Position numbers and translations under genes: made by a program
Origin: an uncultured Gemmatimonadota bacterium
Lineage (GTDB): Bacteria; SM23-81; DAOVCL01
Reading direction: 5' to 3'
Length of the DNA: 64,000 bases
NCBI GenBank assembly: GCA_964626665.1
Contig: CAZVGK010000001.1
Coordinates: 1 to 64,000, forward strand
Part shown: positions 15,887 to 44,925 of the stretch, piece by piece
How the letters are laid out: every line of letters starts with the position of its first letter
Position numbering within the stretch: position 1 is the first letter of the stretch
The notes under the pieces: generated by a model
The model's database searches: none
Told to the model about the DNA's origin: nothing
What the model saw: only the letters and a program-made list of their open reading frames with translations

Positions 15887-15915
15887 AACTTAATTTCCTC
15901 CCACCCAATTGTCAA
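15887..15915 (-). promoter_or_regulatory. putative promoter toward hypFCDE
   Basis: TTGACA-N17-TAAGTT on the minus strand, back-to-back with the rex promoter. Confidence 0.5.
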
Positions 15916-15940
15916 GGGGAAAGATTTTTTTAGAAAAAGC

Positions 15941-15969
15941 TTGACAGGGGGCAGTCGGCTTGCTATTAT
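15941..15969 (+). promoter_or_regulatory. rex promoter
   Basis: TTGACA-N17-TATTAT with TG extension. Confidence 0.75.
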
Positions 15970-15972
15970 ACA

Positions 15973-15990
15973 TTGTGAATTTCTTCACAA
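15973..15990. promoter_or_regulatory. Rex operator (autoregulatory)
   Basis: TTGTGAA-TTTC-TTCACAA, a perfect Rex consensus just downstream of the -10. Confidence 0.92.
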
Positions 15991-16002
15991 GGAGGGAGGA
16001 GT

Positions 16003-16638
16003 TTGGAATCTAAGGCTCCAACGGCAACCATAGCAAGGCTTTCTCGCTATTATCGTCGCTTAACCCACCTGGAGGTTGAAGGGGTAGATACCGTCTCCTC
16101 GGAGACCTTGGGGGAGGTGGAGGGGGTTACCCCCTCGCAGGTGAGGAAGGACCTCTCCCTTTTTGGCAGTTTTGGCACCAAGGGGTTGGGCTATCCGGTC
16201 TCCGAATTGAAGGGAAAGGTTGCCTCTATCCTGGGTTTGGATAGAAAGTGGAAGGTTGGTTTGATTGGGATGGGCAATGTGGGTTCCGCCCTGGTGGGGT
16301 ATAAGGAATTTCACAAACAGGGGTTTGAGATTGTGGTCACCTTTGACAATGACAAGAGGAAGATCGGGAGCAAACGGGATGGGCTGGTAGTTAAGGATGT
16401 GGAGGAGATGGAGGATTACCTGAAGAGGGAGAAGGTGGATATCGTGATTTTGGCTGTCCCGGCAGATCAGGCCCAGAAGGTGGCCGAAAAGGTGGTGGGA
16501 TGTGGGGTGAGGGCCATACTGAACTTTGCCCCAGTCTCCCTTAAGTTACCCCCCAAGGTCTTTGTGCGCAATGAGAATATGGCCATCGAGCTTGAGGCCC
16601 TCTCCTTCTCCTTGGTGAATAAGAAGATTATTGGCTAA
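16003..16638 (+). CDS. rex: redox-sensing transcriptional repressor Rex
   Basis: RLSRY, QVRKDLS.FG..G..G.GY, IGMGNVG and ILNFAP motifs. Confidence 0.97.
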   Translation: MESKAPTATIARLSRYYRRLTHLEVEGVDTVSSETLGEVEGVTPSQVRKDLSLFGSFGTKGLGYPVSELKGKVASILGLDRKWKVGLIGMGNVGSALVGYKEFHKQGFEIVVTFDNDKRKIGSKRDGLVVKDVEEMEDYLKREKVDIVILAVPADQAQKVAEKVVGCGVRAILNFAPVSLKLPPKVFVRNENMAIELEALSFSLVNKKIIG

Positions 16639-16761: not shown

Positions 16762-16789
16762 TTGACATTCTTTGATTGATTGTTATCTT
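16762..16789 (+). promoter_or_regulatory. promoter of the hydrogenase operon
   Basis: TTGACA-N16-TATCTT with TG extension. Confidence 0.65.
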
Positions 16790-16799
16790 TAAGCTGAGT

Positions 16800-16817
16800 T
16801 TGTGAAAAAGTTCACAA
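16800..16817. promoter_or_regulatory. Rex operator of the hydrogenase operon
   Basis: TTGTGAA-AAAG-TTCACAA, ending 1 nt before the ATG at 16819. Confidence 0.92.
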
Positions 16818-16818
16818 A

Positions 16819-17895
16819 ATGGATACCCTATTCATCGAGAAAAAGGATATTATCCCCTTTTGCAAGGCTTTGACCCATAAAGCGGAGCTCTACTCCAGTG
16901 TGGGGAGGAATGGGGGGATACACCTGGAGAGGTTAGCGGGAGGTAATTTAGAGGATGTGCTAACTGGGGGGAGGAGGACGGTGGAACCACTTAAGGCCCT
17001 CTTCTTTCTGCCCCTCTCCAAGGTTGCCGAATATTCATCGGCCAATTGGACCTCTCAGGGGAAGGAGAGGATAGTTTTAGGGGTGAAGGCCTGCGATTTA
17101 AAGGGGTTTGAGGTTTTAGACAAGGTTTTCTTGGAGGGGGAATACAAGGACCCCTTCTATGAGGCCAGGAGGAAGGCGACCCTGATCATCTCCGTCGACT
17201 GTACTAAGCCTGAGGATACTTGCTTCTGCACCTCTATGGGTGGAAAGCCATACCCAGAGTCTGGATTTGACCTTAACTTCTCTTTCCTAAATGAGGGGGC
17301 GATAGTGGAGATAGGTTCAGAAAGGGGAGGGGAGATAACCGGCGAATACAAGGCCTTCTTCCGTCAGCCGACCGCCGCTGAGTTAAAGGAGAGGGAAAAG
17401 AGGAGAAAAGAGATAACCAGCCAGGTGGATGAATACAATGTTAGGTGGGGAATAAAGCCACCCTATCATAACCTGGTAAAAAGGGCCACGGGCTCCCCGT
17501 TATGGGCCAAATTGGCCGAACGATGCGTAGAGTGTGGGGCTTGCCTGTACATCTGCCCTACCTGCCGCTGTTTCCTGCTCTATGATCAGGGAGAAGGGAA
17601 GGCCAATGAGAGGGTGATGATCTGGGATGGTTGTTATTTCCCCGGTTACTGGAGGATGGCCGGAGGCCTTACCCCCAAGCCCAGACTAACCACCAGGTTC
17701 GAGAACCGATTTAACTGTAAGTTCGACTACTTTGTGGAGAATTACGATGTGGAGGCCTGCACCGGCTGTGGCCGCTGCATAGAGGCTTGTATGGGCAAGA
17801 TCGACATCAGGGAATGTCTTCAGGAATTGAGGGGAAAGGCTAAACCGGACATTTTGGAATTTCTTAAAAATTCTGAAATGTCAGGGGATGTTTGA
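16819..17895 (+). CDS. AsrA/HydB-like 4Fe-4S subunit
   Basis: GVKACD, CFCTS, CVECGACLYICPTC and CTGCGRCIEAC motifs. Confidence 0.88.
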   Translation: MDTLFIEKKDIIPFCKALTHKAELYSSVGRNGGIHLERLAGGNLEDVLTGGRRTVEPLKALFFLPLSKVAEYSSANWTSQGKERIVLGVKACDLKGFEVLDKVFLEGEYKDPFYEARRKATLIISVDCTKPEDTCFCTSMGGKPYPESGFDLNFSFLNEGAIVEIGSERGGEITGEYKAFFRQPTAAELKEREKRRKEITSQVDEYNVRWGIKPPYHNLVKRATGSPLWAKLAERCVECGACLYICPTCRCFLLYDQGEGKANERVMIWDGCYFPGYWRMAGGLTPKPRLTTRFENRFNCKFDYFVENYDVEACTGCGRCIEACMGKIDIRECLQELRGKAKPDILEFLKNSEMSGDV

Positions 17896-18047: not shown

Positions 18048-18863
18048 ATGGAGAATCCCTATCTACCAGTAGAAGCAGAGCTTCTGAGGGTGGTGGAGGA
18101 GACCCCCACCATAAAGACATTTGTCCTCAAACCCTTCCAACCCATTCCCTTCCGGGTCGGACAGTTTATGCAACTCACCCTCCCCGGAGTGGGGGAAGCG
18201 CCCTTTACCCCCTCCTCCCCCCCCTATGAGGAGGAGAGAATGGAGATAACCATCCTCAAGACGGGCAGGGTAACCGATGCTCTGCACAGCCTGCAACCAG
18301 GGGAAACCTTAGGCCTGAGGGGCCCTTTTGGTAAAGGCTATCCCGTAGATAAATTTGTTGATAAGGAGATACTTATTGTGGGGGGAGGAGTGGGTTTAGC
18401 CCCCTTGCGGTCACTGCTCTATTATCTCTTTCAAAATCAGGACAAATTTAAGAGGGTCTCCATAAAGTATGGAGCAAAGAAACCAGAGGAGCTTTGTTAC
18501 CAGAAGCTCTATCCCCAATGGGAGAAGCTGAATAAGGTCGACCTTACGGTGACCATCGATGTACCGGCCCCGGGATGGAAGGGAAAGGTAGGCTTGGTAA
18601 CCACCCTTTTGGATGACCTGGATATTGACTTGAAGAACAGCTATGTAATCTCCTGTGGGCCAGAGGTAATGCTTAAATTCGTCACCTATAAGCTGATAGA
18701 TATTGGATTTGCCCCTGAGCAGATTTACCTCTCAATGAACAGGAATATGAGCTGTGGAATTGGTAAATGTGGCAGGTGCATCATCGGGAAATACTTCCTC
18801 TGTAAGGATGGACCGGATATGTGTTATGCGGATATAAAGGATATACCGGGGGTCTTTGGTTAA
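18048..18863 (+). CDS. AsrB/HydG-like FAD/NAD(P)-binding 2Fe-2S subunit
   Basis: GQFM, RGPFG, GGGVGLAP and MSCGIGKCGRC..C.DGP motifs. Confidence 0.92.
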   Translation: MENPYLPVEAELLRVVEETPTIKTFVLKPFQPIPFRVGQFMQLTLPGVGEAPFTPSSPPYEEERMEITILKTGRVTDALHSLQPGETLGLRGPFGKGYPVDKFVDKEILIVGGGVGLAPLRSLLYYLFQNQDKFKRVSIKYGAKKPEELCYQKLYPQWEKLNKVDLTVTIDVPAPGWKGKVGLVTTLLDDLDIDLKNSYVISCGPEVMLKFVTYKLIDIGFAPEQIYLSMNRNMSCGIGKCGRCIIGKYFLCKDGPDMCYADIKDIPGVFG

Positions 18864-20613
18864 GATGCAAAACGGGAGAAGAGGTATCTGTCCCTTCTGC
18901 TGTCTGCAGGATGGGTTGAGGATAGAAGGAGGGAAATTTGAGCCCCTCTTTGGTGAGGATTCCCTTTTACATTTAGACTACGACACAAATGATAAGGTGA
19001 ATCAGGGTTCCCTCTGTTCCCGGGGGAATTCGGTGATTGAGCTTTTAGAGCATCCTCAAAGGTTACTTGCCCCCTCTTTTCAAGGAAAGGAGATAGGTTG
19101 GCAGGAAGCTCGTAGGCTTATGGCCTCCAAATTAGGGAAGGGAACCTCCCTTATTTTAGGTCCAAACCTCACCTTAGAGGAGGCCTGGTTGGCTAAGGGC
19201 CTGGCAAGTTCCTTGGGTCTCCAGGGGATTGCCCATCTGGCCCCCGATGATGGGGAGGCCTTTCAGGTTTTGCGGTGGTTGGGGAAGGTAGGGGAAGTGG
19301 GGATGGAGGAGATAGAGAAGGCTGATCTTATCCTCGTAGTAGGTGATGCCTTTATGGAACATCCGGTTGGCTCTCAGAGGGTGCTCAGAGCCAAGTATGC
19401 CGAGAGGAAAAACAGGCTCCTTGTCCTCGACTCGGTGAAGACCAAGACAACCTGGTTTGCCAATCAACACCTCCAGCCAAAACCGGGGACTGAAGGGTTT
19501 GTCCTGGCTGGATTGGCCAAAGCGCTCTATAAGTTAAAGCCTTCATATTTAGCTTCCCTCTTTAAGAAGATCAATTTAGAAAAGATAACCCAGATCACTG
19601 GCCTGGGCCGAGATGAAATGGAGAAGGTGACCACTCAGCTTGCCTCTGCCCGACAGGGGGTGGTTATCCTCTCTAACCTTTGGGGAAGGGTGGGACCGGT
19701 GGGGTTGGCTACATTCTTTGGCAACCTATTGGCCTCCCTTTCCGGCGGAAAATTTCTGCATTTGCCTGTCTATCAAAATGGCTTCGGAACAAGCCTCATC
19801 TTAGGGGTGGGCACAACTGGCCCTCGGCTACTGGACGGGGTTCAAAAGGGGGAGACAAAGGGCCTCTTTGTTGTGGGGCTTGACCTCCTTTCTTCCCTTC
19901 CTGGTCAACAAAAGGATATTGGATGGAAAAAACTGGAATTTCTTTGGACGACTGCCATACTCCCCAATCAGACAACCAAAGAGGCGGATTTGATCCTCCC
20001 TGCTGCCTCTGGCTTGGAGAAGAGGGGGAATCTGCTCTATCTGAATGGGGATTTGCGAGAGATGGATCCCGTTTTGCCTCCACCAGGTGGGGCTAAAGCT
20101 GATGGGCAGATCTTCCGGGATATGTCCAATGGTAAGCTTTCCTCTCCGGAGGGAGCCAAACTGAAGGAGGCAGTGAAGGGGGAATCCCTTCCAGAAAAGA
20201 ATATCGCTCAGAGGATCGAGGCCCTCTGGGAAGAGGAGATAGCCAAGGAGAGCGAGGATAAATTGCCCTTTTGGTTTATCCCGTCTGCTCATCCCGCCCA
20301 TTTGGGGAATGGGGCGATAACCTCTCATCTGGGTTGGGCAAAGAAGGTCTGCCCGGAGCCATCCATTGCGCTTAACCCAGCTACGGCAGCTAAATTGAAG
20401 CTGGAGGCCGGGGATAGGGCATTAGTAAGCTCACAGGTGGGAAAAGAGACATTTCACATTGAAATAAACGAACGGCTAAAGGAGGATCAGGTTACGGTTC
20501 CCGCCCACTTCCCTCAGCTACGCAGGCTCTTCCCCTGGAAGGTGGGGGAAACCCTGGGGGAGTTCTCTTTGCGGCCGCAGAGGGTGAAGATTGCCAAGGC
20601 TAAGGGGGATTGA
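18856..20613 (+). CDS. molybdopterin oxidoreductase-family (NuoG C-terminal/FdhA-like) subunit, probably cofactor-less
   Basis: N-terminal CPFC...LC.RG, ADLILPAA..EK.G and LNPATA motifs. No Mo-ligand Cys/Sec motif visible. Confidence 0.75.
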   Translation: MVKMQNGRRGICPFCCLQDGLRIEGGKFEPLFGEDSLLHLDYDTNDKVNQGSLCSRGNSVIELLEHPQRLLAPSFQGKEIGWQEARRLMASKLGKGTSLILGPNLTLEEAWLAKGLASSLGLQGIAHLAPDDGEAFQVLRWLGKVGEVGMEEIEKADLILVVGDAFMEHPVGSQRVLRAKYAERKNRLLVLDSVKTKTTWFANQHLQPKPGTEGFVLAGLAKALYKLKPSYLASLFKKINLEKITQITGLGRDEMEKVTTQLASARQGVVILSNLWGRVGPVGLATFFGNLLASLSGGKFLHLPVYQNGFGTSLILGVGTTGPRLLDGVQKGETKGLFVVGLDLLSSLPGQQKDIGWKKLEFLWTTAILPNQTTKEADLILPAASGLEKRGNLLYLNGDLREMDPVLPPPGGAKADGQIFRDMSNGKLSSPEGAKLKEAVKGESLPEKNIAQRIEALWEEEIAKESEDKLPFWFIPSAHPAHLGNGAITSHLGWAKKVCPEPSIALNPATAAKLKLEAGDRALVSSQVGKETFHIEINERLKEDQVTVPAHFPQLRRLFPWKVGETLGEFSLRPQRVKIAKAKGD

Positions 20614-20614
20614 G

Positions 20615-21103
20615 TTGGAGGAGAAGAGGGTCGTAATTGACCTCAATTACTGCATTGGCTGTCAGTCCTGTGCCGCGGCCTGCTGGCAGGGACATCATAA
20701 GCAATCACGGCTTTTCCACGGGGAGATAAGGGGGTTGGCTCTCCTTCCCCTGAACTGTCGCCAGTGTGAGGAGCCAGCCTGTGTCAATGCCTGCCCTACC
20801 AATGCCTTAGAAAAGGGTGAGGATGGTGTGGTTCGGCGGAAGACTATGCTCTGTGTGGGCTGTCTCTCCTGTGTCTATGCCTGTCCCTTTGGGGTGATGG
20901 AGGCGGAGCTGAGCAAGCATCTTTCCCCCAACTGTGATCTCTGTCAGGACAGGGTTAGCCAGGGGAAGGAACCCAGATGTGTGGCCTCCTGTGTCTCTGG
21001 CGCTCTCAGGTTTGTCCCCTTATCCAAGGTGTTTGGTGAGGATAAGAGGGAACTTCAAGTGGGGGCCAGGATCATCTCCAAAAGCTTATTGAAGAGGTCT
21101 TAG
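20615..21103 (+). CDS. 4x[4Fe-4S] electron-transfer subunit (HycB/DmsB-like)
   Basis: CIGCQSCAAAC, CRQCEEPACVNACP, CVGCLSCVYACP and CDLC..PRCVASC. TTG start after SD. Confidence 0.88.
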   Translation: MEEKRVVIDLNYCIGCQSCAAACWQGHHKQSRLFHGEIRGLALLPLNCRQCEEPACVNACPTNALEKGEDGVVRRKTMLCVGCLSCVYACPFGVMEAELSKHLSPNCDLCQDRVSQGKEPRCVASCVSGALRFVPLSKVFGEDKRELQVGARIISKSLLKRS

Positions 21104-22039
21104 ATGGAACTGAGCCTCAAGCCTTTGTTATATTTTCTCGTATTCCCGGGATTTGTCTTTACCGCGGTGGTTGGTCTGCTCTCCTCCTGGGTGGACAGGA
21201 AGGTCACGGCTAAGGTGCAATGGAGGGTTGGTCCCCCCTGGTATCAGAACTTTGCGGATATCATCAAGCTTCTCCACAAGGAGATAATCGTCCCTCAGGG
21301 GAGCAGGTTCACCGGTTTCCTTTTGGCCCCTATCGTAGGGCTGGCCGGGGCCACCTTGGTCTCCACGATAATATGGGTGATAAACCTCAATCCGGATTCT
21401 GGCTTTGTCGGCGATCTGATAGTAGTCCTCTACCTCTTAACTCTTCCCTCCTTAGGGGTGATCATTGGGGGCTCTGCTTCCCGTAACCCCTTAGGTGCAA
21501 TGGGGGCGTCAAGGGAGATGAAGCTTATCTTGGCCTATGAGCTTCCCTTTATTATAGCCGTCTTTACCGTTGTCCTCAAGGTGGGCTCCATCCTCTTTGG
21601 GGACATAATTGGCTACCAGCAGGTATCCGGGATTATGCTTAGGCATCCCTCCTGTATAATCGCCTTTTTGGTGGCCCTGGTCTGCTCCCAGGCCAAGCTT
21701 ACCCTTGTCCCCTTTGACATCCCGGAGGCCGAACAGGAGATAATTGCCGGCCCATTTACCGAATATTCTGGAGCCCCTTTGGCCATCTTCAGGCTGACCA
21801 GGGCGATGATGCTCTTTGTCCTTCCCGTCTTCCTGATCACCGTTTTCTGGGGAGGGATGAACTTTCACGGTTGGCAGATATTAGCCTCTTGCTTAAAGTA
21901 TTTAGCAATTTTGGTCTTTATCATCTTAGTGAAAAACACAAATCCCCGTCTGAGGATAGATCAGGCCATAAAGTTTATGTGGGGTCCGATGACTCTTCTG
22001 GCCATCGGGGGAATGGTCCTGGCTGTAGTGGGGCTTTAA
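21104..22039 (+). CDS. NuoH/MbhM-like membrane subunit
   Basis: DRKVTAKVQWRVGPP, PFDIPEAEQEI and PRLRIDQ motifs. Confidence 0.93.
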   Translation: MELSLKPLLYFLVFPGFVFTAVVGLLSSWVDRKVTAKVQWRVGPPWYQNFADIIKLLHKEIIVPQGSRFTGFLLAPIVGLAGATLVSTIIWVINLNPDSGFVGDLIVVLYLLTLPSLGVIIGGSASRNPLGAMGASREMKLILAYELPFIIAVFTVVLKVGSILFGDIIGYQQVSGIMLRHPSCIIAFLVALVCSQAKLTLVPFDIPEAEQEIIAGPFTEYSGAPLAIFRLTRAMMLFVLPVFLITVFWGGMNFHGWQILASCLKYLAILVFIILVKNTNPRLRIDQAIKFMWGPMTLLAIGGMVLAVVGL

Positions 22040-22052
22040 AGGAGGGTGGCTG

Positions 22053-22466
22053 ATGGGATTTAAATCCTGGTCTCTAAAGAAATCCCCGTGGATATTCCAT
22101 GTCTGTACCGGTTCCTGCAATAACTGTGATATCGAGCTATTGGACTGCCTTACCCCTAAGTTCGATGTGGAGAGGTTTGGTATCCTTCTGGTGGGGAGCA
22201 TCAGGCATGCCGATGCTCTGATAGTTACTGGGGCGGTGACCAGGCAGGCAGCCCCTAAGCTCAAATACCTCTGGGAGCAGATGCCCAAGCCAGGATTGGT
22301 CGTTGCCTTGGGGGCCTGTGGTTGTTCGGGGGGGATTTTCCGGGACTCTTATAACATCGTTGGTCCGGTGGATAGGATCATCCCCGTAGATGTTTATGTC
22401 CCTGGATGTCCCCCCAAGCCGGAGGCGATCATCTCCGGGATCGTCAAGGGATTGGCCAAGCTTTGA
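22053..22466 (+). CDS. group 4 hydrogenase small subunit (NuoB/EchC/MbhJ-like)
   Basis: GSCNNCDIE, GACGCSGG and VPGCPP motifs. Confidence 0.93.
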   Translation: MGFKSWSLKKSPWIFHVCTGSCNNCDIELLDCLTPKFDVERFGILLVGSIRHADALIVTGAVTRQAAPKLKYLWEQMPKPGLVVALGACGCSGGIFRDSYNIVGPVDRIIPVDVYVPGCPPKPEAIISGIVKGLAKL

Positions 22467-22475
22467 GGCAATAGT

Positions 22476-22637
22476 TCACCACTGATAACCACAGACTGAC
22501 AAAGAATTGGTTAATGATCAATTAGCAATTAACAATTATCAATGGGAAATGGCACACACCTCAGGATTTTCTGGCTTTATTTCATTTTAACTTGCTAATT
22601 GTTAATTGACCATTGATGATTGCCATTCCGTGGTGAA
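22476..22637. repeat. inverted heptamer-repeat element inside the operon
   Basis: ttcaccac...gtggtgaa ends enclose caattagcaattaacaatt and its inverted ttgctaattgttaattg. Confidence 0.6.
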
Positions 22638-22653
22638 TTCTTACATTTAAGCT

Positions 22654-23079
22654 ATGGATGTAGCCAAAGAGATAAAAACTAAGTTCGGGGAAAAGGTGAA
22701 GTTGGCTATCAGGTCACCTAAGAGGCTATATTGCTTGGTGGACAAGGGAGATCTCCCTTTAGTGGCCCGTTTCCTCTTCGAGGAGCTGAAGGCCCGTTTC
22801 TGCACGGCCAGTGCAGTGGACACCAGAGGTGGGATTGAGGTCCTCTATCATTTCTTTTTTGATCAACTTTCCCTGATGGTTAGCTTACGAACCCTCCTTT
22901 CCAAGCCATCCCCACAGATAGAGTCGCTTGCCCCCTTCCTTAAAGGGGCTGAATGGATAGAAAGGGAGATAGCTGATCTTTTCGGGGTAAGGTTTGCTGG
23001 CCATCCCGATCCTCGCCGGCTTATCCTGCCGGACGATTGGCCCGAGGGGGAATATCCATATCTCAGGGGGGAGGATTGA
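22654..23079 (+). CDS. NuoC/MbhK-like subunit
   Basis: EWIEREIADLFGV.F.GHPD.RRL.LPDDWP motif. Confidence 0.92.
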   Translation: MDVAKEIKTKFGEKVKLAIRSPKRLYCLVDKGDLPLVARFLFEELKARFCTASAVDTRGGIEVLYHFFFDQLSLMVSLRTLLSKPSPQIESLAPFLKGAEWIEREIADLFGVRFAGHPDPRRLILPDDWPEGEYPYLRGED

Positions 23080-24266: not shown

Positions 24267-24267
24267 A

Positions 24268-34754: not shown

Positions 34755-34848
34755 CTACTTCGTCACCTTGCTTCCCGCAATGACATATCTTTGCCTGTCA
34801 TTGCGAGGCTTGCCCTGAGCGGCAGCAAGGGGCAAGCCGAAGCAATCT
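34755..34848. repeat. GTCATTGCGAG REP-like pair
   Basis: cgcaatgac...gtcattgcgaggcttg...gaagcaatc. Confidence 0.8.
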
Positions 34849-34894
34849 TTAACCTCTGCTGCACTGTAAATCTTGTGTTTAACGCATTAAAGAT

Positions 34895-35584: not shown

Positions 35585-35632
35585 AGAAGGGAGCGCCAAT
35601 AGTCTTCTGGCTAAGGGTTTTTAGCTGAAGAG

Positions 35633-35998: not shown

Positions 35999-36059
35999 AG
36001 GGGTTAAACCACAAATTTCTCCAGAATATTTGGGCCCTTTCTCCGGCGAGGTATAAGGA

Positions 36060-37550: not shown

Positions 37551-37591
37551 GGGTAGTTTTCCGCCAATATAAGGTAAATGGGAAAAATTTT

Positions 37592-39439
37592 ATGTCCATA
37601 GGTGTAATACTAATAATTGCTTTTGGGGGAGCGTTTTTCACCTATCTTTTGGGCAAGATCTCCTCTACTCTGAGGAACCTTTTTGCCGTTCTGATTTCCC
37701 TTCTGCTTGTTGGTTTGATCTCTCTTGCCTATGGCAGGTTAGGGTGGAGGGTCGGCTACGAATTCCTTGGTTTTAACCTTGTTTTGAGATTAACTGTCCT
37801 CTCCTGGTTTTTTGCTATTTCGATAGCTGGCATTGGGTTTCTCTCCATAGTCTTTTCACTGAGCTATATGAAGGGGAGGGAAAACCTCGATTTCTATTAT
37901 CTGATGATGCTCCTGGTTAATGCCGGAATGTTAGGGGTTGTCTTCAGCGGTGATCTGCTTTCCTTTTATATCTTCTGGGAAATTATGAGTTGGGGAACAT
38001 ATCTGTTGATCAGCTCCGGGCGAGGTAAGGCCTTGGATGCGGGTCTGAAATATATCATCTGGTCAATTATCGGTTCCAGCCTTATGATGCTTGGCTTTCT
38101 CTACCTATATGTTAGCTATGGGACATTAAGTTTCCCCGGTCTCTCCCTCCGGCTTAGCTCTGCCCCATCCGGGGTTCTCCTTCTTACCCTCATCCTCTTC
38201 GGCATTGGGTTTGGCATCAAGAATGCCCTTCTTCCCCTCCATACCTGGTTGCCAGATGTTTACACCGAGGCTCCTTCCCCGTTTACCGCTGTTCTCTCCG
38301 GGATGCTCACGCGCATGGGGGTTTACGGTTTCCTTCTGGTGATGTATGTGCTGGTAGGGTTGAGGGAGGTAGTTCACCTCGGCTCTGGTTGGTTTACCTT
38401 CAACAATGTCCTCTCCTGGCTGGGCGCTATCACCATAGTTATCCCCACCTTTATTGCCCTGCTGCAGAATGATGCCAAGAGGCTCTTGGCCTGGAGTAGC
38501 GTAGGCCAGGGAGGGTATATGATCTTGGGGATAGCCTTCGGGACGAGTATGGGGGTGGCGGGAGGGATACTGCACACCTTGGGATATGCACTGAGCGTGG
38601 TGCTACTCTTTATGGTGGTGGGGGCGGTGGAACATCGCACCCAGGGGATAAGAGACTTAAACCAATTGGGTGGGTTAATAAAGAAGATGCCCCTTACATT
38701 CATCGGGGCTTTGATCGGTATCTCTGGGTTGATTGGGGTTCCCTTGGTTTGTCCCTTTGTTTCCAAGTGGTTGATCTATAAAACATTAATTGATCAAGGG
38801 CATCCAATTTTGGCCTTTGCCGCTTTAATCGGAACCTGGGGAGCCATACTTTATGCCTATAAATTCATTCACAACATTTTCTTGGGGCAAACGCCTAAGA
38901 GGCTAGAGAATGTAAAGGTGGCCCCTTTTAGCATGCAATTTCCTATGGCCGTTCTCTCGGTGATCATTGTCCTCTTCGGTATCCTTCCAGGTATTCCGCT
39001 TAAGGTTATTGGGAACATTGAGAGCTCCTTTGGCTTTGCCCCTCTTGCCCTAAATGTATGGGGGATAAGATCCGAAGTGGCCATCCTAAATACATTAAAC
39101 ATCTTTGCGGCAGTATTATTGGCGGTCTTCTTCATTTTCCTCCTCTTTCGCATGGGAGCCGGATCGCGGAGGGTTCCCCAGGAGGATAGTTACACCGCGG
39201 GAGCAGCGCCAGTTCCTGCAGATAGGTATCATCATACGGTCGATTTCTATAACCCATTCCAGAGAATAATTTCACCCTATCTGCGGGATAGGATTGACGA
39301 TCTTTACTACTGGATTGCTGGGGGCGCAAGGGGGATCTGTGACGGAATCAGACGCATCTATACAGGGGATGTGGGGACCTATGCTCTCTACATCGTCCTT
39401 TTTCTGGCGTTTCTCATTCTAATGCAGAGGTTTGGCTAG
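37592..39439 (+). CDS. MbsH'/MbxH' (second antiporter-like subunit, MrpA/NuoL-like)
   Basis: FWEIMSW, HTWLPD, KRLLAWSS and C-terminal YTGD..Y motifs. Confidence 0.88.
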   Translation: MSIGVILIIAFGGAFFTYLLGKISSTLRNLFAVLISLLLVGLISLAYGRLGWRVGYEFLGFNLVLRLTVLSWFFAISIAGIGFLSIVFSLSYMKGRENLDFYYLMMLLVNAGMLGVVFSGDLLSFYIFWEIMSWGTYLLISSGRGKALDAGLKYIIWSIIGSSLMMLGFLYLYVSYGTLSFPGLSLRLSSAPSGVLLLTLILFGIGFGIKNALLPLHTWLPDVYTEAPSPFTAVLSGMLTRMGVYGFLLVMYVLVGLREVVHLGSGWFTFNNVLSWLGAITIVIPTFIALLQNDAKRLLAWSSVGQGGYMILGIAFGTSMGVAGGILHTLGYALSVVLLFMVVGAVEHRTQGIRDLNQLGGLIKKMPLTFIGALIGISGLIGVPLVCPFVSKWLIYKTLIDQGHPILAFAALIGTWGAILYAYKFIHNIFLGQTPKRLENVKVAPFSMQFPMAVLSVIIVLFGILPGIPLKVIGNIESSFGFAPLALNVWGIRSEVAILNTLNIFAAVLLAVFFIFLLFRMGAGSRRVPQEDSYTAGAAPVPADRYHHTVDFYNPFQRIISPYLRDRIDDLYYWIAGGARGICDGIRRIYTGDVGTYALYIVLFLAFLILMQRFG

Positions 39440-39617
39440 CTCCTCGTTGGTCATAGCGAGCCGTCAGAACCCCGATTCTGACGGCAAGGGGGGAAAGTGG
39501 CAGGGAAGCCGGGTAGAAACCGCAGATTCACGCAGATTCTACTCCGTCAGGGCAGGAGCCCTGACGGCACAAGCTCTATAATTCAGACCAGGCGAGTTGC
39601 CGTTGGAAGGGTGTGAT

Positions 39618-40505
39618 ATGGTAAGAACTGTTGCTGAACTTATTGGCTCTCCCCTTATTGCCTTTGTGGTCGGGGTTTTCTTCCTGGGCTTGGCCAGGAA
39701 GGTTACCGCGCGTATTCAGCGAAGATATGGTCCTCCCCTCTACCAGCCGGTCATCGATGTGGTGAAGCTCCTCTATCAGAAGAGCGTCTCCCATGGTTTG
39801 ATGTTTGATTTTGGGGTCCTCCTCTCTTTGGGGGGGGCGATAGTGACCATTCTCTTCATTCCGGTGGGGAGGATATGTCCGCTGAATATGTCCGGAGGGA
39901 TGCTGGTAATTATCTATCTTATGCTCCTTTCCCCTCTGGGAACTGCCCTCAGTGCGGGGGAAGCGGCGAACCCCAACGCCAGCATTGGCATCTCCCGGAA
40001 GATGTTGCTTGCCTTGGGATATGAAGTCCCCTTCCTGCTAATTATACTTTCGGTTATGACCCATTATGGGACTACCTCCATCACAGAGATTGTCCACCTA
40101 CAGCAGATAGGGCATTGGGGGATAGTTTCTCTGCCCCTTCCTGGTATAGCGGCCCTTTTGATCCTACCTCCGATGTTGGGGATAAGGCCCTTTGATATGG
40201 TCGACGCCCCGCAGGAGATAGCATCTGGCCCACTGGCCGAATATGGGGGGAAGTATCTGGCCCTCATCTCCATCGAGCATGCCATGCACATCTTCTTAGT
40301 CATTGCTCTCTTCGTTGATCTCTTCTTGGGCGGTTCCGGTAATCTCCTCATTTTCCTGGTGGAGGTGACAGTCATCTTTTTGCTGGGCCTTTTAGTTAGT
40401 GTTGTATTCCCCCGCTTCCGGATTGAGCAGGCGCTGAGGTATTGCTGGAAGTGGCCTACAATTCTGGCTTTTATTGGCTTGATAATAGTGATGATATGGA
40501 GGTAG
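39618..40505 (+). CDS. mbsM: MbsM/MbxM (NuoH-like)
   Basis: RKVTARIQRRYGPP, PFD..APQEIASG and PRFRIEQA motifs. Confidence 0.9.
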   Translation: MVRTVAELIGSPLIAFVVGVFFLGLARKVTARIQRRYGPPLYQPVIDVVKLLYQKSVSHGLMFDFGVLLSLGGAIVTILFIPVGRICPLNMSGGMLVIIYLMLLSPLGTALSAGEAANPNASIGISRKMLLALGYEVPFLLIILSVMTHYGTTSITEIVHLQQIGHWGIVSLPLPGIAALLILPPMLGIRPFDMVDAPQEIASGPLAEYGGKYLALISIEHAMHIFLVIALFVDLFLGGSGNLLIFLVEVTVIFLLGLLVSVVFPRFRIEQALRYCWKWPTILAFIGLIIVMIWR

Positions 40506-40539
40506 TTGGTGGGCTTTATTCTCTTAAAAGGAGATAGAA

Positions 40540-41064
40540 ATGGATAGAGGGAACATCATAAAGGCCTTAAAAAGCCCCGGGAAATGGGGTGAGAAGTACT
40601 CCCTCTGGGTGACATACTTTTGTACAGGGTGTGGTATCATGGAGATCCCCCCTATTTTGACCTCCAGGTGGGATGCCGAGCGATTTGGGATAATTCCCAT
40701 GGCCACCCCCAGGCAGGGGAACCTCTTTTTGATCACCGGTTATGTGTCGCTTAAGACCCTGCGGGCGATCATCAGAACCTACGAGCAGATGAATGATCCC
40801 AAGTACTTGATCGGTTTTGGCTCCTGTCCGGTGAATGGTGGTATGTATTGGGACTCTTACAACACGATAAAGCGCCTCGATAAGTATCTTCCTGTGGATG
40901 GCTGGATTGCTGGTTGTATGCCCAGGCCAGAAGCCATATTCATTGCCGTGGTCCATCTGTGGACGATGATAGATAAGGGGATGGCCACTGGTTACAAGAA
41001 GTATGTGGAGAACTATGATTATTATAAGGGAAATCAACGAAAGCTGTTGGGAGAGGAAATATAG
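40540..41064 (+). CDS. mbsJ: MbsJ/MbxJ (NuoB-like)
   Basis: FCTGCG..E, GSCPVNGGMYWDSY and GCMPRPE, an Mbx-type signature. Confidence 0.9.
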   Translation: MDRGNIIKALKSPGKWGEKYSLWVTYFCTGCGIMEIPPILTSRWDAERFGIIPMATPRQGNLFLITGYVSLKTLRAIIRTYEQMNDPKYLIGFGSCPVNGGMYWDSYNTIKRLDKYLPVDGWIAGCMPRPEAIFIAVVHLWTMIDKGMATGYKKYVENYDYYKGNQRKLLGEEI

Positions 41065-41105
41065 AACTTGTCTGGCTGAACAGTTGCGGCTAAAAGGGGA
41101 ATGAT

Positions 41106-41609
41106 ATGAGGGAGGAAGAGCTGAAGAAGGAAATCGAGAATATGTTTGCGGGCAGCCAGGGGACCATCCAAAGGCAGGGGAGGTTGATTGTAAACTGCCC
41201 GAAGGAATCCCTTTCCTCCCTACTCATCTATCTGAAGGCAAACGGATTTGAACACCTATCCGCTATCTCCTGTGTGGATTGGATGGGGGAGAACCAATTT
41301 GAGTTGATATATCATCTCAACTCGTTCTCCACTGGGGTGCATATAATGGTGAAGGCGAGGATCGATAGGGATACCCCAAATTATGTGACTGTTTTACCCC
41401 TTTTCCCTAATGCTCAGACCTACGAACGGGAGATACATGAGATGTTCGGGATAGATTTTGCCGGCAACCCCAGGCAGATCCCCCTTCTTTTGGACCATTG
41501 GAAGGAGATGCCCCCATTTCGGAAGGATTTCGATATGCGGGAGTATGTGAAGCGCACATTTGGAAATGACCAAGGAAACCAGACTAAGGAAGGAAAAGGG
41601 AGCGGTTAG
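41106..41609 (+). CDS. mbsK: MbsK/MbxK (NuoC-like)
   Basis: YEREIHEMFGI.F.GNP and PPFRKDF motifs. Confidence 0.9.
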   Translation: MREEELKKEIENMFAGSQGTIQRQGRLIVNCPKESLSSLLIYLKANGFEHLSAISCVDWMGENQFELIYHLNSFSTGVHIMVKARIDRDTPNYVTVLPLFPNAQTYEREIHEMFGIDFAGNPRQIPLLLDHWKEMPPFRKDFDMREYVKRTFGNDQGNQTKEGKGSG

Positions 41610-41625
41610 TCCTTTTGATGAAGGA

Positions 41626-42735
41626 ATGAGTGAAGAAAGAAGAGAACTGGAACTATACTTTGGCCCTCAGCATGTGGGTATGGTGGGGAACTTCAGCATC
41701 ACCCTTCAGGTGGAGGGGGACAAGATCGTGGAGGCAAAGGCCAATCCTGGTTTCCTCCATCGGGGTTTCGAAAAGCTGATGGAGTATAGGACCTGGATTC
41801 AGAACTTCCCTTTGGTCTGCCGGATCAATGTAATGGATCCAGATCCCGAGGAGTTGGTTTATGCTCTGGCCGTTGAGGAACTGGCCGGCATAGAGGTGCC
41901 GGAGAGGGCCAGGTACATAAGGACGATGGTTTTGGAGATGTCCAGGATAACATCCCACCTGGCCAGTATATGGGCTTACGCCAATATGTTGGGGTTTGAC
42001 ACCATTGGTCAATGGAGTGTGGGAGACAGGGATTATTTCCTTGATCTGTTTGAAGATCTTACTGGAGGAAGGATCTACCATATCTATATCACCCCTGGTG
42101 GGGTGCGCAGGGATTTGCCGGAAGGGTTTGAGGAGAAGGTGAAGGAAGTTATGGGAAATTTAGAAAGCCATCTGCCAGAATATGATAACCTCTTCTTTAA
42201 CAACAGGCTCTTTGTGGAGAGAACCGGGGGAGTGGCTAAGTTGAATAAAGATGAGGCCATTGCCCTGGGGGCAACAGGCCAGGTGCTACGGGCTACAGGG
42301 GTGGAGTGGGATATAAGGAAGGTCGAGCCCTATGCTGCCTACTCGGCTATGGATTTTGCTGTCCCGGTGGAGGAGGGCGGTGATTCTTATTCCCGAATGA
42401 TGTTGATCAGGAAGGAGATAGATCAAAGTCTGTCCATTATCAAACAGGCTTTAAGGAAAATGCCTGGAGGGCTTGCCTTCCAAAAGGTTCCCAACCCTTT
42501 CAAATGGAAGATTCCACCTGGGGAGGTTTGGGTGCGGGTGGAATCGGCAAGGGGGGAGAAGGGTCTCTATATGGTTAGTGATGGAGGGGATAAACCACAT
42601 AGTGTTCGTTTTCGGAGCCCCTCCTATCCCCACGGGATTCTCATTTTGGAAAAGCTTTTACAGGGAGTAAGCATAGCCGATACCGGTCATATTATGATGA
42701 GTCTGAATGTTGCTGCTCCGGAAATAGACAGATAG
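41626..42735 (+). CDS. mbsL: MbsL/MbxL (NuoD-like) catalytic subunit without NiFe ligands
   Basis: FGPQH, HRGFEKLME, CRINVMDPD and C-terminal APEIDR. No CxxC motifs. Confidence 0.88.
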   Translation: MSEERRELELYFGPQHVGMVGNFSITLQVEGDKIVEAKANPGFLHRGFEKLMEYRTWIQNFPLVCRINVMDPDPEELVYALAVEELAGIEVPERARYIRTMVLEMSRITSHLASIWAYANMLGFDTIGQWSVGDRDYFLDLFEDLTGGRIYHIYITPGGVRRDLPEGFEEKVKEVMGNLESHLPEYDNLFFNNRLFVERTGGVAKLNKDEAIALGATGQVLRATGVEWDIRKVEPYAAYSAMDFAVPVEEGGDSYSRMMLIRKEIDQSLSIIKQALRKMPGGLAFQKVPNPFKWKIPPGEVWVRVESARGEKGLYMVSDGGDKPHSVRFRSPSYPHGILILEKLLQGVSIADTGHIMMSLNVAAPEIDR

Positions 42736-42802
42736 TAGAAGGCAACTTAGATATAAGCTCGCTAGCGAAACTGCGTAATGTAAAATGAAAAATGCATTTT
42801 CA

Positions 42803-42849
42803 ATTGCTGGCTGCAAGACTTGACACAAATTTTTGCCTATGAAGCCAGA
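42803..42849 (+). repeat. ~50-bp GCTGGCT mini element, copy 3
   Basis: ttgctggctgcaagacttgacacaaatttttgcctatgaagccag. Confidence 0.75.
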
Positions 42850-42851
42850 TA

Positions 42852-43027
42852 GCCTGAATTATTCATAAACTGATGATGAATTCATTATTCAAGTGCCTTC
42901 CTATCGCCCGTAGGGACAGACCTTCAGGTCTGTCCGCCTCTTTCGGACAGGTCTAAAGACCTGTCCCTACAAGAAGAAACCTACGGGGTTTGAAGATGAA
43001 CCAAAGTAATTCATGAATAGATCGGGA
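42852..43027. mobile_element. MITE-like element flanked by TA, containing a GTAG REP doublet (42910-42970)
   Basis: Imperfect TIRs gcctgaattattcataaa...ttcatgaatagatcggga. A solo matching end lies at ~50336-50359. Confidence 0.55.
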
Positions 43028-43068
43028 TAGAATCTATCCCCTTTGATTAAAATAGGAGGATGAAGGGA

Positions 43069-44925
43069 ATGGCTAAGAAAGGAAGTATTTTCACCCCTTT
43101 GACCGCGTTGAAGTTCCTCTTTAAAAAGCCTCATACCTTGCGGTATCCCTTCGAACAGAAGGAGATCTCCCCCCGTTATCGGGGGTTCCATATAAACGAT
43201 TGGGAAAAGTGCACTGGATGTGGTAACTGTGCTGATATCTGCCCTAATGAGGCTATCACTATGAAGGAGATGCCTGAGATCAAGCCAAAACCGGGCGAGA
43301 AGAACGAGCGTCCGGAGATCGACTACGGCAGATGTTGCTTTTGTGGCCTGTGTGTAGATATCTGCCCTCCTGGTTCCCTTAGCCTGAGCAGGGATTACCT
43401 CCATATCGTCCCCAAATCCGATATGTTCATCTCCTTGGCTGATAGCGAGAAATCAGGGAACAAATCCTTTGTAAAAAAGGAGGAATACTCTTTAATGAAG
43501 GCCAGCTTGGCCCATCGGTTGGCCGGAAATGAGGGATTTGCCTCGGACAAGGACTACTCCTATGTGGAGTTTGAGCGGGTGCCTATGCCCATAGTTGAGC
43601 CGGAGAAGCGGAAGGGCTCCTTTATCGAGCTGGTCCTCGGCTACGAGGAGGAAGAGGCAAGAAAGGAGGCCGCCCGCTGTCTGGAGTGCAAGCTCTGCGA
43701 AGAGGCCTGCCCTGCTCACCTAAAGATCTCCGATTATGTAAAGGAGATAGCTGAGGGCAGATATGAGAATGCCCTAAGGAAGATCTTTGAGGATAACCCC
43801 ATTCCCTTGATCTGTGGCAAGATATGTATGGCCCACTGTGAAGATGTCTGCTCAATCAGCTATCGGGGGGAGCCAATAGCTATCAGGTGGTTGAAGAGGT
43901 TTGCCGCAGATCAGGTGGTGGATTACAGGGAGGCGCTGTGGCCGGAGATCCCCCCGGATACCGGCAAGAAGGTAGCCATCATCGGGGCGGGTCCCAGTGG
44001 TTTGTCCCTTGCTTACTTCCTGAGATTAAGGGGGCATAGCATTACTGTATATGATGCCTTGCCCGCTGGGGGAGGGATGTTGCGGGGGGGGCCCCCACTC
44101 TACCGGCTTCCCTTGAAGAGCATAGACAAGGATGTCAATTATATTGCCTCTCTGGGTGTAGATTTTGAGTTTAACACAGAGGTGGGTAAAAACATAGATT
44201 TTAAGGAAATCCTTCGTAACTACGATGCAGTTTATCTGAGCATTGGGATGTGTAGGGGGAGGTATATCAAACTGGAGCACGAGGAGCTCATTCCGCAGGC
44301 AGTAGATTTCCTGCAGAGGGTGAAGTTCGGTAAGGAGGTGCAGGTAGGCAAGGATGTGATTATCATCGGGGGAGGGAATGTGGCAATGGATGTGGCCCGC
44401 ACCTGCTTGAGGCTGCAGCAAATACAATATCCTGGGCAAAAAACCTCGGTTAATATCGCCTGTCTGGAATCCTGGGACATTATACCGGCTACCGAGGAGG
44501 AGTGGAAAGAGGCCAAGGAGGAAGGTGTGCAGTTTAATGTCTCCTGGGGGCCCAAAAAGGTCTTGTTGGATGGTGGTAAAATAAAGGGGTTGGAGTTTAA
44601 AGCCGTAAAGTCCGTGTTTGATGAACAGGGCAGATTCGCCCCCACATTTTACGAGGAAAAGCTAATGACCCTGGAAGGGGATATGATCATCGAGGCTGTG
44701 GGCCAGATGTCAGACTTTTCATTTCTGCCAGAAGAGCTGATGAGTAAATTAGAATTTACCCCCCGCAGGAAGGTGAAGGTCGACGAAAATGGTCAGACCT
44801 CTATCCCCGGGATCTTTGCCGGCGGTGATATAGTCAACCTAAATCTGGATGCGGTAACTGCCATTGCCGATGCCAAAGTCGCCACGGAGGGCATAGACAA
44901 ATATCTGAAAGGGAAGATGAAATGA
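43069..44925 (+). CDS. MbsN/NuoI-like ferredoxin domain fused to a GltD/NfnB-like FAD/NAD(P)H oxidoreductase
   Basis: CTGCGNCADICP and CCFCGLCVDICP, then RCLEC..C..ACP, CGKIC..C, GAGPSG, GGGNVAMD and FAGGD. Confidence 0.92.
   Translation: MAKKGSIFTPLTALKFLFKKPHTLRYPFEQKEISPRYRGFHINDWEKCTGCGNCADICPNEAITMKEMPEIKPKPGEKNERPEIDYGRCCFCGLCVDICPPGSLSLSRDYLHIVPKSDMFISLADSEKSGNKSFVKKEEYSLMKASLAHRLAGNEGFASDKDYSYVEFERVPMPIVEPEKRKGSFIELVLGYEEEEARKEAARCLECKLCEEACPAHLKISDYVKEIAEGRYENALRKIFEDNPIPLICGKICMAHCEDVCSISYRGEPIAIRWLKRFAADQVVDYREALWPEIPPDTGKKVAIIGAGPSGLSLAYFLRLRGHSITVYDALPAGGGMLRGGPPLYRLPLKSIDKDVNYIASLGVDFEFNTEVGKNIDFKEILRNYDAVYLSIGMCRGRYIKLEHEELIPQAVDFLQRVKFGKEVQVGKDVIIIGGGNVAMDVARTCLRLQQIQYPGQKTSVNIACLESWDIIPATEEEWKEAKEEGVQFNVSWGPKKVLLDGGKIKGLEFKAVKSVFDEQGRFAPTFYEEKLMTLEGDMIIEAVGQMSDFSFLPEELMSKLEFTPRRKVKVDENGQTSIPGIFAGGDIVNLNLDAVTAIADAKVATEGIDKYLKGKMK

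Follow-up and report, generated by a model that had tools for sequence, protein, structure and literature searches.

We analysed a stretch of 64,000 nucleotides (nt), hereafter the window, from contig CAZVGK010000001.1 of an uncultured Gemmatimonadota bacterium (genome G000, 3,173,157 bp), in which two operons for complex-I-like respiratory complexes follow one another. Coordinates are window positions unless a contig or locus is named; loci are labelled L, genomes G, sequencing runs X and contigs of G000 C. A sequence-only reading of this DNA had described two divergent complex-I-like operons lying back to back on the same strand, and both are present at or near the positions it gave. Every gene of the locus is on the + strand, all open reading frames (ORFs) are intact, and the two units are predicted to be separately promoted operons that encode Mrp-type, complex-I-like ion-translocating oxidoreductases. 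We are highly confident of the anatomy of both operons as described below.

15.9-32.2 kb, + strand: operon 1, with rex, Rex boxes, a group-4 [NiFe] hydrogenase and an Mrp module
32.3-44.9 kb, + strand: operon 2, with a csoR-family gene, its operator and a 13-gene MBS/MBX set

The features of operon 1 and of the hyp maturation genes on the opposite strand are as follows, with Pfam as the source of the assignment unless another is named.

10726-15598, - strand: hyp maturation genes
10726-11823, - strand: HypE-like
11720-12868, - strand: HypD
12780-13001, - strand: HypC
13190-15598, - strand: HypF
15941-15990, + strand: promoter-like site 1, TTGACA-17-TATTAT, 11/12 matches, then Rex box 1 (sequence pattern)
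15973-15990, + strand: Rex box 1, no mismatch to the pattern TTGTGAAnnnnTTCACAA
16003-16638, + strand: rex, redox-sensing repressor with a winged helix and a Rossmann fold (Pfam PF06971, PF02629)
16762-16817, + strand: promoter-like site 2, TTGACA-16-TATCTT, 10/12 matches, then Rex box 2 (sequence pattern)
16800-16817, + strand: Rex box 2, no mismatch to the same pattern, 1 nt 5' of the next gene's ATG
16819-17895, + strand: AsrA-like or sulfhydrogenase-beta-like Fe-S subunit (Pfam Fer4_22; NCBIfam ShyB and HydB, below cut-off)
18048-18863, + strand: AsrB-like or sulfhydrogenase-gamma-like FAD/NAD(P)H/[2Fe-2S] subunit (Pfam, NCBIfam)
18856-20613, + strand: divergent molybdopterin-fold (MopB) subunit, 585 amino acids (aa) (Pfam, NCBIfam, structure model)
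20591-21103, + strand: HycB/CooF-like polyferredoxin (Pfam, NCBIfam)
21104-26106, + strand: hydrogenase module as a whole (Pfam, solved-chain matches)
21104-22039, + strand: NuoH-like subunit
22053-22466, + strand: NuoB-like small subunit
22654-23079, + strand: NuoC-like subunit
23037-24266, + strand: [NiFe] large subunit (Pfam, solved-chain matches)
24268-26106, + strand: NuoL-like subunit
27590-32164, + strand: Mrp module and N subunit of complex 1, eight genes (seven Mrp-type plus N)
27590-28153, + strand: MbhD/E
28143-28637, + strand: MnhB
28634-28984, + strand: NuoK-like subunit
29000-30478, + strand: MrpD
30478-30969, + strand: MrpE
30960-31220, + strand: MrpF
31213-31572, + strand: MrpG
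31559-32164, + strand: 2x[4Fe-4S] N subunit of complex 1

The large subunit of this complex had been described as a [NiFe] protein with intact L1 and L2 motifs in an operon with a perfect Rex box, and both points hold. Its ORF spans 23037-24266, and the motifs RICGICSTSH and DPCYCCTER, aligned to those of Pyrococcus furiosus MbhL and Escherichia coli HycE, supply the four NiFe cysteines. These two proteins are also its best solved matches (6CFW_L, 5.8e-83, 282 bits, and HycE, 1.4e-78, 268 bits). The protein keeps the equivalent of MbhL Glu21 and carries a 35-residue C-terminal tail after the L2 motif. Together with the hyp genes and two HycI-family endopeptidase matches in G000, this tail completes the maturation set for a group 4 [NiFe] hydrogenase. 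One further [NiFe] hydrogenase is encoded at C4:133046-134817 with its own protease alongside, and no match to an [FeFe] hydrogenase was found in G000. Complex 1 is thus predicted to be a group-4 [NiFe] hydrogenase wired like formate hydrogenlyase, from the HycB-like protein through N and the small subunit to the large subunit, in which a sulfhydrogenase-beta/gamma-like NAD(P)H flavoprotein pair and the molybdopterin-fold subunit take the place of formate dehydrogenase. The expectation that each complex has an NAD(P)H flavin module of its own was likewise borne out, the module being the AsrB-like FAD/NAD/2Fe-2S protein in complex 1 and a fused N-GltD protein in complex 2.

As the molybdopterin-fold subunit might suggest, operon 1 could instead encode a hydrogenlyase for a formate-like substrate of that subunit, of the Fdh-Mfh-Mnh kind, with the AsrAB-like pair as a side branch. 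Fdh-Mfh-Mnh clusters of Thermococcus have the same electron path as formate hydrogenlyase. The predicted structure of the subunit, with a predicted local distance difference test (pLDDT) score of 94, resembles formate dehydrogenases and Nap, which are its best Foldseek matches (template modelling score, TM-score, ~0.8, query-normalised; 13-18% identity). Its gene overlaps both neighbouring genes, and its HycB-like partner is as in E. coli formate hydrogenlyase (7Z0S). A family of relatives comprises 68 representative clusters at E <=1e-30, mostly 550-615 aa, of which 43 members were aligned; the FS0 motif CxxCxxx(C/D)...C, read CxxCxxxD...C in the window's protein, is kept in all 36 of those with an N-terminus, and the Asp at the Mo-ligand position (Asp132) in 38 of 43. 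Against this, alignment to an F420-dependent formate dehydrogenase places Asp132 at the selenocysteine (Sec) or Cys position, the Sec/Cys-His pair of formate dehydrogenases being Asp-Gly here, and the NCBIfam Fdh-alpha model scores 116 bits versus a cut-off of 666. Two otherwise syntenic loci, L015 and L025, lack the subunit altogether and have the HycB-like gene directly after the AsrB-like gene, and between Zixibacteria families the subunit is only 39-41% identical versus 55-77% for its neighbours. A homologue could not be classified as a formate dehydrogenase in the available part of PMC6349859. We consider the hydrogenlyase alternative very improbable. A plain formate dehydrogenase identity was downgraded because of the Asp-Gly site, the low score and the absence from L015 and L025, and the subunit is read as an accessory that either transfers electrons, in the manner of the C-terminal part of NuoG, or acts catalytically on an unassigned substrate.

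Control of this hydrogenase arm by Rex, as the same reading had proposed, is supported by the position and the conservation of the boxes. Both match TTGTGAAnnnnTTCACAA, which we take to be the Rex-box consensus, lie directly 3' of sigma-70-like promoters, and overlap the start regions of the rex and operon-1 promoters. The looser pattern TTGTGAn6TCACAA has two matches in the whole genome, both at this locus. A box with one mismatch is found directly 5' of the AsrA-like gene in four of five related loci (G002, G003, G006 and L015), the exception being L025, where none precedes this gene. In G003 and G006 the box sits in the ~138-nt gap between the N-GltD gene and the AsrA-like gene, suggesting that the hydrogenase operon is its own Rex-controlled unit even where it abuts mbx. 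No Rex-like box with three or fewer mismatches occurs within 32160-32700 of the window. We regard the assignment of operon 1 to Rex as well founded and probable, and such conserved, sequence-level Rex control of this hydrogenase type would be an addition to the account in the available part of PMC6349859.

The second operon contains the following genes, again assigned by Pfam unless stated otherwise.

32685-42735, + strand: MBS/MBX-type genes A to L (Pfam, solved-chain matches)
32685-33206, + strand: A, MrpE homologue
33203-33454, + strand: B, MrpF homologue
33882-34217, + strand: C, MrpG homologue
34190-34450, + strand: D
34895-35584, + strand: E, MbhE and MnhB domains
35633-35998, + strand: G, NuoK-like
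36060-37550, + strand: H, antiporter-like, 496 aa
37592-39439, + strand: H', antiporter-like, 615 aa
39597-40505, + strand: M, NuoH-like
40540-41064, + strand: J, NuoB-like
41106-41609, + strand: K, NuoC-like
41560-42735, + strand: L, NuoD-like
43060-44925, + strand: N-GltD, a NuoI-like 2x[4Fe-4S] N subunit fused to a GltD/SudA-like FAD/NAD(P)H domain, 621 aa (Pfam, NCBIfam)

The order A,B,C,D,E,G,H,H',M,J,K,L,N is the 13-gene MBS/MBX order with two antiporter-like subunits (compared with the 13-subunit MBS list in PMC7684303), and the MBS/MBX order, the absence of NiFe ligands, the csoR-family gene and the operator that had been reported for this operon were all found. Subunit L scores 359.8 bits against P. 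furiosus MbsL (6U8Y_L), versus 248.8 for the best complex I subunit and 140.3 for MbhL. It has none of the four NiFe cysteines, valine at both quinone-ligand positions (His38 and Tyr87) and no equivalent of MbhL Glu21. Subunit J matches MbsJ (6U8Y_J) with 228 bits, the next match having 123, in a gapless alignment that includes the CTGC loop (FCTGCG, GSCP, AGCMP). In Pyrococcus the shortened CxxC loop leads to a proximal cluster with three Cys ligands, the proposed catalyst (PMC7684303). G000 encodes only two NuoD homologues, both at this locus, and no canonical complex I was found in it by a NuoD query and a family search.

At the electron-input end, the first ~120 residues of the 621-aa N-GltD protein match NuoI and the rest matches GltD-type NAD(P)H flavoproteins. 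The protein spans NCBIfam PRK13984 end to end (residues 7-619 versus 8-609 of 611) with 701.7 bits, the cut-off being 946. A free, ferredoxin-accepting N subunit of the MBS type is not what we found; as in the Thermotoga-type variant, GltD and N form one protein, and complex 2 is accordingly classed, on these alignments, as a Thermotoga-type MBX/MBS complex with a GltD-like NAD(P)H flavoprotein on its electron-input N subunit. Two signalling genes follow the operon.

44933-45850, + strand: histidine kinase, sensor-less (Pfam)
45825-46211, + strand: receiver-only response regulator (Pfam)

The kinase gene starts 8 nt after the N-GltD gene, with which it may be co-transcribed. Homologues of the kinase and the regulator (30-55% identity) also adjoin mbx-like operons in L016, L044 and L080.

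Between the two operons lie the csoR-family gene and its operator.

32254-32281, + strand: promoter-like site before csoR, TTGACA-16-TAGATT, 10/12 matches (sequence pattern)
32335-32607, + strand: CsoR-family repressor with Cys35, Tyr60 and Cys64, x-C-x-C (Pfam, NCBIfam, solved match)
32642-32674, + strand: operator inverted repeat, core TACCCTACaccGTAGGGTA at 32649-32667

The operator core TACCCTACaccGTAGGGTA is a perfect 8+8 palindrome 18 nt 5' of the start of gene A and is unique in the window; in the Streptococcus mitis cst operator the core is ATACCCTTATGGGGTAT (PMC8643695). Persulfide sensors of the CsoR family are defined by x-C-x-C without His at the Y position (PMC8643695), and the window's protein shows this pattern: Cys35, Tyr60 and Cys64 are invariant in all four orthologues, none of which has His at the Y position or Tyr before Cys35. 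The residue preceding Cys35 is Asp in the window's protein and Pro or Ser in the three other orthologues. The Cu(I)-sensing CsoR pattern, x-C-H-C with a second-shell Tyr/Glu, is not seen, since Tyr replaces His and Asp stands before Cys35. The best solved match is 7MQ1 (2.5e-10; alignment of ~70 residues at low identity), which is S. pneumoniae CstR (PMC8643695).

As score margins are small, the class within the family rests on the ligand pattern and not on the score, and the protein could be a metal or aldehyde sensor whose tie to mbx has nothing to do with sulfur. Matches to Cu-CsoR (1.3e-09) and FrmR (2.7e-09) lie close to that of CstR, and the top-ranking NCBIfam models are RicR (43.6 bits) and FrmR (43.4 bits), both far below their cut-offs; each of these scores tells against a sulfur sensor. 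The window's protein also has Pro2 together with Cys35, as FrmR does. However, Pro2 is absent from all three other orthologues, and FrmR-like sensing through Pro2 and Cys35 was dropped as a candidate for this reason. No orthologue has the His at the Y position that is required for the Cu(I), Ni/Co and FrmR patterns in the available part of PMC8643695, and no metal-efflux or frmA-like neighbour occurs in the 13 csoR loci described below, two of which (L100 and L110) instead have thioredoxin and a TauE-family exporter among their neighbours. A metal or aldehyde sensor is, in our view, improbable.

To find further copies, metagenome contigs were scanned with an alignment of four CsoR-like proteins, which yielded 13 loci. 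The csoR-like gene stands beside mbx-like genes in nine of these (L098, L100, L102, L103, L104, L106, L107, L109 and L110). In L099 the end of a hydrogenase operon lies 5' of csoR and an operator-like site lies near the contig end, no mbx genes occur in the available stretch of L101 and L105, and L108 spans just 1.2 kb. The window's arrangement is found almost unchanged in L098 (96% identity). A synteny search for hydrogenase, csoR and mbs had been suggested for this locus, and the order of hydrogenase end, csoR and mbx does recur in the diverged locus L103, where complex-1 MrpG and N are followed after a 74-nt gap by csoR and then by A, B and C (CsoR 54%, complex-1 N 54%, A 59%; 54-66% identity overall).

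Some of these loci have further features. L101 and L102 lie on one 50-kb metagenome contig that carries two csoR-like copies ~20 kb apart, one before an mbx-like operon; the other adjoins a LacI-like regulator and two alcohol-dehydrogenase-like genes (read from their translations), with no operator-like site nearby. In L100 and L110 csoR lies beyond the N-GltD end, with DUF5981, DUF1638 and methyltransferase-like genes between in both; thioredoxin is an extra neighbour in L100, and the TauE-family exporter and rex are in L110.

A strict pattern, TACCC-N5-11-GGGTA, applied to 80 genome loci gave only a coding site within gene A (L074, L082 and L085) or sites in unrelated places, and was replaced by a mismatch-tolerant half-site scan. 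With an operator-like site defined as four or fewer mismatches to TACCCTAC-N3-5-GTAGGGTA, 38 loci with at least 350 nt 5' of A could be compared. The site occurs in all eight loci in which csoR is immediately 5' of A (the window, L098, L019, L102, L103, L104, L106 and L109) and in none of the 30 others. As L102 and L104 are near-copies of one another, and likewise the window and L098, these amount to about six independent cases. L016 has an operator-like site 5' of A though its csoR is downstream. A TTGACA-N17 promoter stands immediately before the operator in five of the eight (L019, L102, L103, L104 and L109); the corresponding site reads TTTGACA in L106 and is no more than degenerate in the window and L098. 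The proposal of a CstR-like protein and operator before the sulfur arm is thereby strengthened, both by the x-C-x-C pattern of persulfide sensors and by the co-occurrence of operator and gene. We think it very likely that the CsoR-like protein acts through this operator on mbx. Taken together, these comparisons indicate that the CsoR-family protein is a conserved, dedicated regulator of mbx-like operons, of which we found no earlier description.

The wider distribution of complex 2 was assessed by a scan for L, one genome per species, which gave 80 loci from many phyla that are 60-70% identical in L (61-62% for those titled Thermotogae). Where at least 1950 nt of sequence are available after L, a fused N-GltD follows in 58 of 59 loci, L044 being the exception. 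A csoR-like gene is 5' of A in one of 29 loci (L019) and downstream on the opposite strand in two of 45 (L014 and L016); rex lies within 3 kb 3' of N in five of 45. The order mbx followed by an AsrA-like gene and hydrogenase was seen in three of 45 loci (L015, L025 and L047) and also in G006.

Within the genus, G001 and G002 (90% and 97% complete) gave no MbsL-like match; operon 1 is retained in G002 (75-93% identity), where the genes that come next are unrelated. A quick maximum-likelihood tree of L places the window's sequence apart from those of the same-phylum relatives G003 and G006, while in a tree of the same style the window's hydrogenase large subunit groups with those of G002, G003 and G006. 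Forcing the three L sequences together costs 131 log-likelihood units (approximately unbiased test, AU p = 0.0002), in a comparison whose group was chosen after the tree was seen and in which the window's branch is long. As the two trees differ, the csoR-mbx cassette was apparently acquired separately.

What is known of Rex and CstR points to NADH and reactive sulfur species as the signals at this locus. In the explanation that we favour, a rise in NADH/NAD+ would take Rex off the DNA, and complex 1 would pass NAD(P)H electrons to protons, yielding H2, with the Mrp module coupling this near-equilibrium reaction to an ion gradient. The CsoR-like tetramer would hold complex 2 off until reactive sulfur species cross-link Cys35 and Cys64', as in CstR. 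In complex 2, NAD(P)H electrons would pass FAD and five Fe-S clusters on their way to the proximal, three-Cys cluster of J, which would reduce sulfane sulfur (polysulfide or persulfide) while ions are pumped. One reductant pool would have two sinks, protons by default and sulfur when present. We infer sulfane sulfur reduction by complex 2 from the MbsJ- and MbsL-like traits of its J and L subunits, together with the induction of the Thermotoga maritima complex, whose mbxA is up 4.36-fold with S0 (PMC9431562). An H2/sulfur switch is plausible on these grounds, its effector and acceptor being assigned by analogy, and the two-sensor, two-sink explanation as a whole comes near to an even prospect without reaching it. 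That sulfur species are the effector of the CsoR-like protein is possible, our judgement leaning somewhat against it; that sulfane sulfur is the acceptor of complex 2 is tentative and, to us, on the doubtful side.

Besides the narrow scores of the CsoR-like protein, several observations weigh against this explanation. No terminator-like site was found on the + strand between operon 1 and csoR, so that read-through may link the two operons. The standard potentials leave a span of only ~50-60 mV from NAD(P)H to polysulfide, which is little for two antiporter-like pumps. Sulfurtransferase genes of the cst type are not beside csoR, and the sulfide and persulfide detoxification neighbourhood typical of CstR is missing. 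The two vestigial cysteines of Pyrococcus MbsL, Cys85 and Cys385, are replaced in L by Asn and Ala; as they are dispensable for activity in Pyrococcus and not catalytic (PMC7684303), their loss weakens strict membership of MBS and not the mechanism. The molybdopterin-fold subunit of operon 1 is a further complication. The two operons also stand side by side in G003 and G006, in reverse order, with no csoR and a gap of ~137-138 nt. Finally, 10 of the 29 loci with enough upstream sequence have rex within 3 kb 5' of A, and a Rex-like box, T[A/G]GTGAAnnnnTTCACAA, stands 17-80 nt before the A start in six of the eight operator-positive loci (L019, L102, L103, L104, L106 and L109), the window and L098 having no such box before A. 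This Rex linkage suggests that in those lineages the mbx-like operon needs no sulfur signal.

The same Rex linkage would fit a model in which the two complexes work in series and are not alternatives. As in the older Mbx model, ferredoxin:NAD(P)+ oxidoreduction by the mbx-like complex would drive ion pumping, with NAD(P)+ reduced at the GltD domain; NAD(P)H would be disposed of as H2 by complex 1. The signal read by the CsoR-like protein would be general thiol or electrophile stress and not substrate sulfur. The operons are adjacent without a regulator gene between them in G003, G006, L015 and L025, the gltD-like subunit is read as the site of NAD(P)+ reduction in the available part of PMC4758237, and the model is used in a Mesotoga preprint (10.1101/322537, likewise available in part). 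Yet a path from ferredoxin through N to FAD bypasses J and L, in which the MbsJ-type loop is nevertheless kept, and coupling of the complex-I type takes place at the pocket below the proximal cluster. Moreover, G000 already encodes a complex of the Rnf/Nqr type (one RnfD match), and the hydrogenase operon keeps its own Rex box after mbx in G003 and G006, which argues for separate units. We judge the series model unlikely.

Returning to the two-sink explanation, its broadest form would make the locus a bacterial equivalent of the SurR switch of archaea, assembled from unrelated components. A CstR-like persulfide sensor would unlock an NAD(P)H-dependent, MBS-type sulfane reductase and Rex an NAD(P)H-dependent, Mrp-coupled hydrogenase, the position of csoR at the tail of the hydrogenase operon would keep the sulfur arm off by default, and the unit of CsoR, operator and mbx, in most cases accompanied by a Rex box, would form a regulon that is widespread, moves laterally and defines the physiological acceptor of bacterial MBX. 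In this full form we consider it somewhat unlikely. If the switch holds, sulfidic-sediment bacteria would choose between H2 and H2S as output by a simple two-repressor logic. Bacterial MBX complexes occur in many phyla, as the 80 species-level loci show, and their substrate is not known to have been measured. The dedicated repressor and its conserved operator offer a direct experimental handle; the agent that releases the repressor is probably the MBX substrate or a close proxy. Both complexes also bear on the evolutionary exchange of input modules in complex I, complex 2 as a complex-I relative with a grafted NAD(P)H flavoprotein other than NuoEF and complex 1 as a hydrogenase of hydrogenlyase-like build that receives its electrons from an NAD(P)H module of the sulfhydrogenase type.

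The integrity of the locus was examined with sequencing runs and by comparison with the rest of the genome. The junctions from complex-1 N to csoR and from csoR to A and B are bridged by contigs of X20 and X21, runs that are not flagged as the source, and an X20 contig spans the NuoL-like gene into the transposase-like ORF listed below. Of the 24 listed runs that contain locus DNA, 23 are salt-marsh metagenomes of one year, possibly from a single campaign, and the remaining one is from a hydrothermal vent with only 0.05 of the words present; no RNA run is among them. Dispersed repeats of ~60-160 bp, with 27-93 blastn matches genome-wide, fill intergenic gaps within both operons, and the operons of G003 and G006 are without these gaps. 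An insertion interrupts operon 1 between the NuoL-like and MbhD/E genes.

22467-22653, 33455-33881, 34451-34894 and 42736-43059: repeat-filled gaps (blastn versus genome)
26107-27589, + strand: insertion within operon 1, a transposase-like ORF and a 143-aa ORF; site empty in G003 and G006; repeat in part (26158-26233)
26253-26870, + strand: REP-associated tyrosine-transposase-like ORF (NCBIfam)
26999-27430, + strand: 143-aa ORF of no assigned family (ORF call), no Pfam match

G002 carries a different 2.2-kb insert at the same site (L095, 9095-11057), whose two ORFs (112 and 522 aa) have no Pfam match; the junction of the NuoL-like and MbhD/E genes is a possible hot spot for insertions. About 30 copies of the palindrome TGTGACTCCTGTCACA or its complement are spread over the contigs of G000 (for example at C3:144846 and C4:57825); the palindrome is probably the core of one dispersed repeat and is not a Rex site. 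The second Rex box, the molybdopterin-fold subunit, the HycB-like polyferredoxin, the transposase-like insertion and the dispersed repeats had been overlooked in the sequence-only reading. Downstream, an unusual architecture at 50410-51201 fuses a response-regulator receiver to a glycine-cleavage H-protein (lipoyl-carrier-like) domain, a free GcvH-like gene lying near an mbx-like operon and rex in G029, and a 1055-aa protein at 51478-54645 combines HEAT repeats with a WD40 beta-propeller.

Both complex types have already been noted in silico (PMC6349859 and PMC4758237, each available in part), and no paper linking mbx with CsoR, CstR or Rex was found in the full-text literature, subscription journals and supplements lying outside it. 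A bacterial Mbh-Mrp cluster is binned as group 4g in the available part of PMC9324843, which we take as a lead only. Complex 1 resembles the 'enigmatic' group-4 hydrogenase of Saganbacteria RX5A (PMC6349859), which likewise combines hydrogenase and Mrp subunits with a molybdopterin oxidoreductase, cooF, asrA and asrB; the nearest relatives of that region are in Zixibacteria and Omnitrophica, and its molybdopterin oxidoreductase is unclassifiable in the available account. It differs in that conserved Rex control is seen here and that the molybdopterin subunit is dispensable in two relatives (L015 and L025). With E. coli formate hydrogenlyase (7Z0S) complex 1 shares the path through HycB-like, HycF/N-like, small and large subunits, HycE being the second-best solved match of the large subunit, whereas it has no catalytic Sec/Cys-His and possesses an NAD(P)H flavoprotein pair.

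Complex 2 resembles the Thermotoga-type mbx-like operon (PMC4758237, PMC9431562) in its Mrp and Nuo-like genes with a gltD-related flavoprotein last. In the mbx-like operons of Thermotoga and proteobacteria this flavoprotein takes the place of NuoI (PMC4758237), whereas here a NuoI-like domain is retained and fused to GltD, and a CsoR-family repressor and operator lie 5'. The repressor is similar to the CstR sensors of Staphylococcus aureus, Enterococcus faecalis and S. pneumoniae in its x-C-x-C pattern and its AT-flanked operator of the ATACCC...GGGTAT type, and to SpCstR in the Asp before the first Cys of the window's protein. It differs from them in having Tyr at the Y position and in that the genes regulated here encode a respiratory complex and not sulfurtransferases or a persulfide dioxygenase. 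The closest parallel to the locus as a whole is the pair of MBH and MBS in P. furiosus. There the donor is ferredoxin, entering through a free N subunit, and the regulator is SurR, whereas each complex here has an NAD(P)H flavoprotein module and the regulators are Rex and a CsoR-family protein; in addition, L here is without the two vestigial cysteines, and the order in complex 1 is hydrogenase first, then Mrp. Both nevertheless combine an Mrp-linked [NiFe] hydrogenase with a 13-subunit MBS-type complex of identical gene order, L and J of complex 2 have their closest matches in MbsL and MbsJ, and the two systems share the idea of protons or sulfur as the sink.

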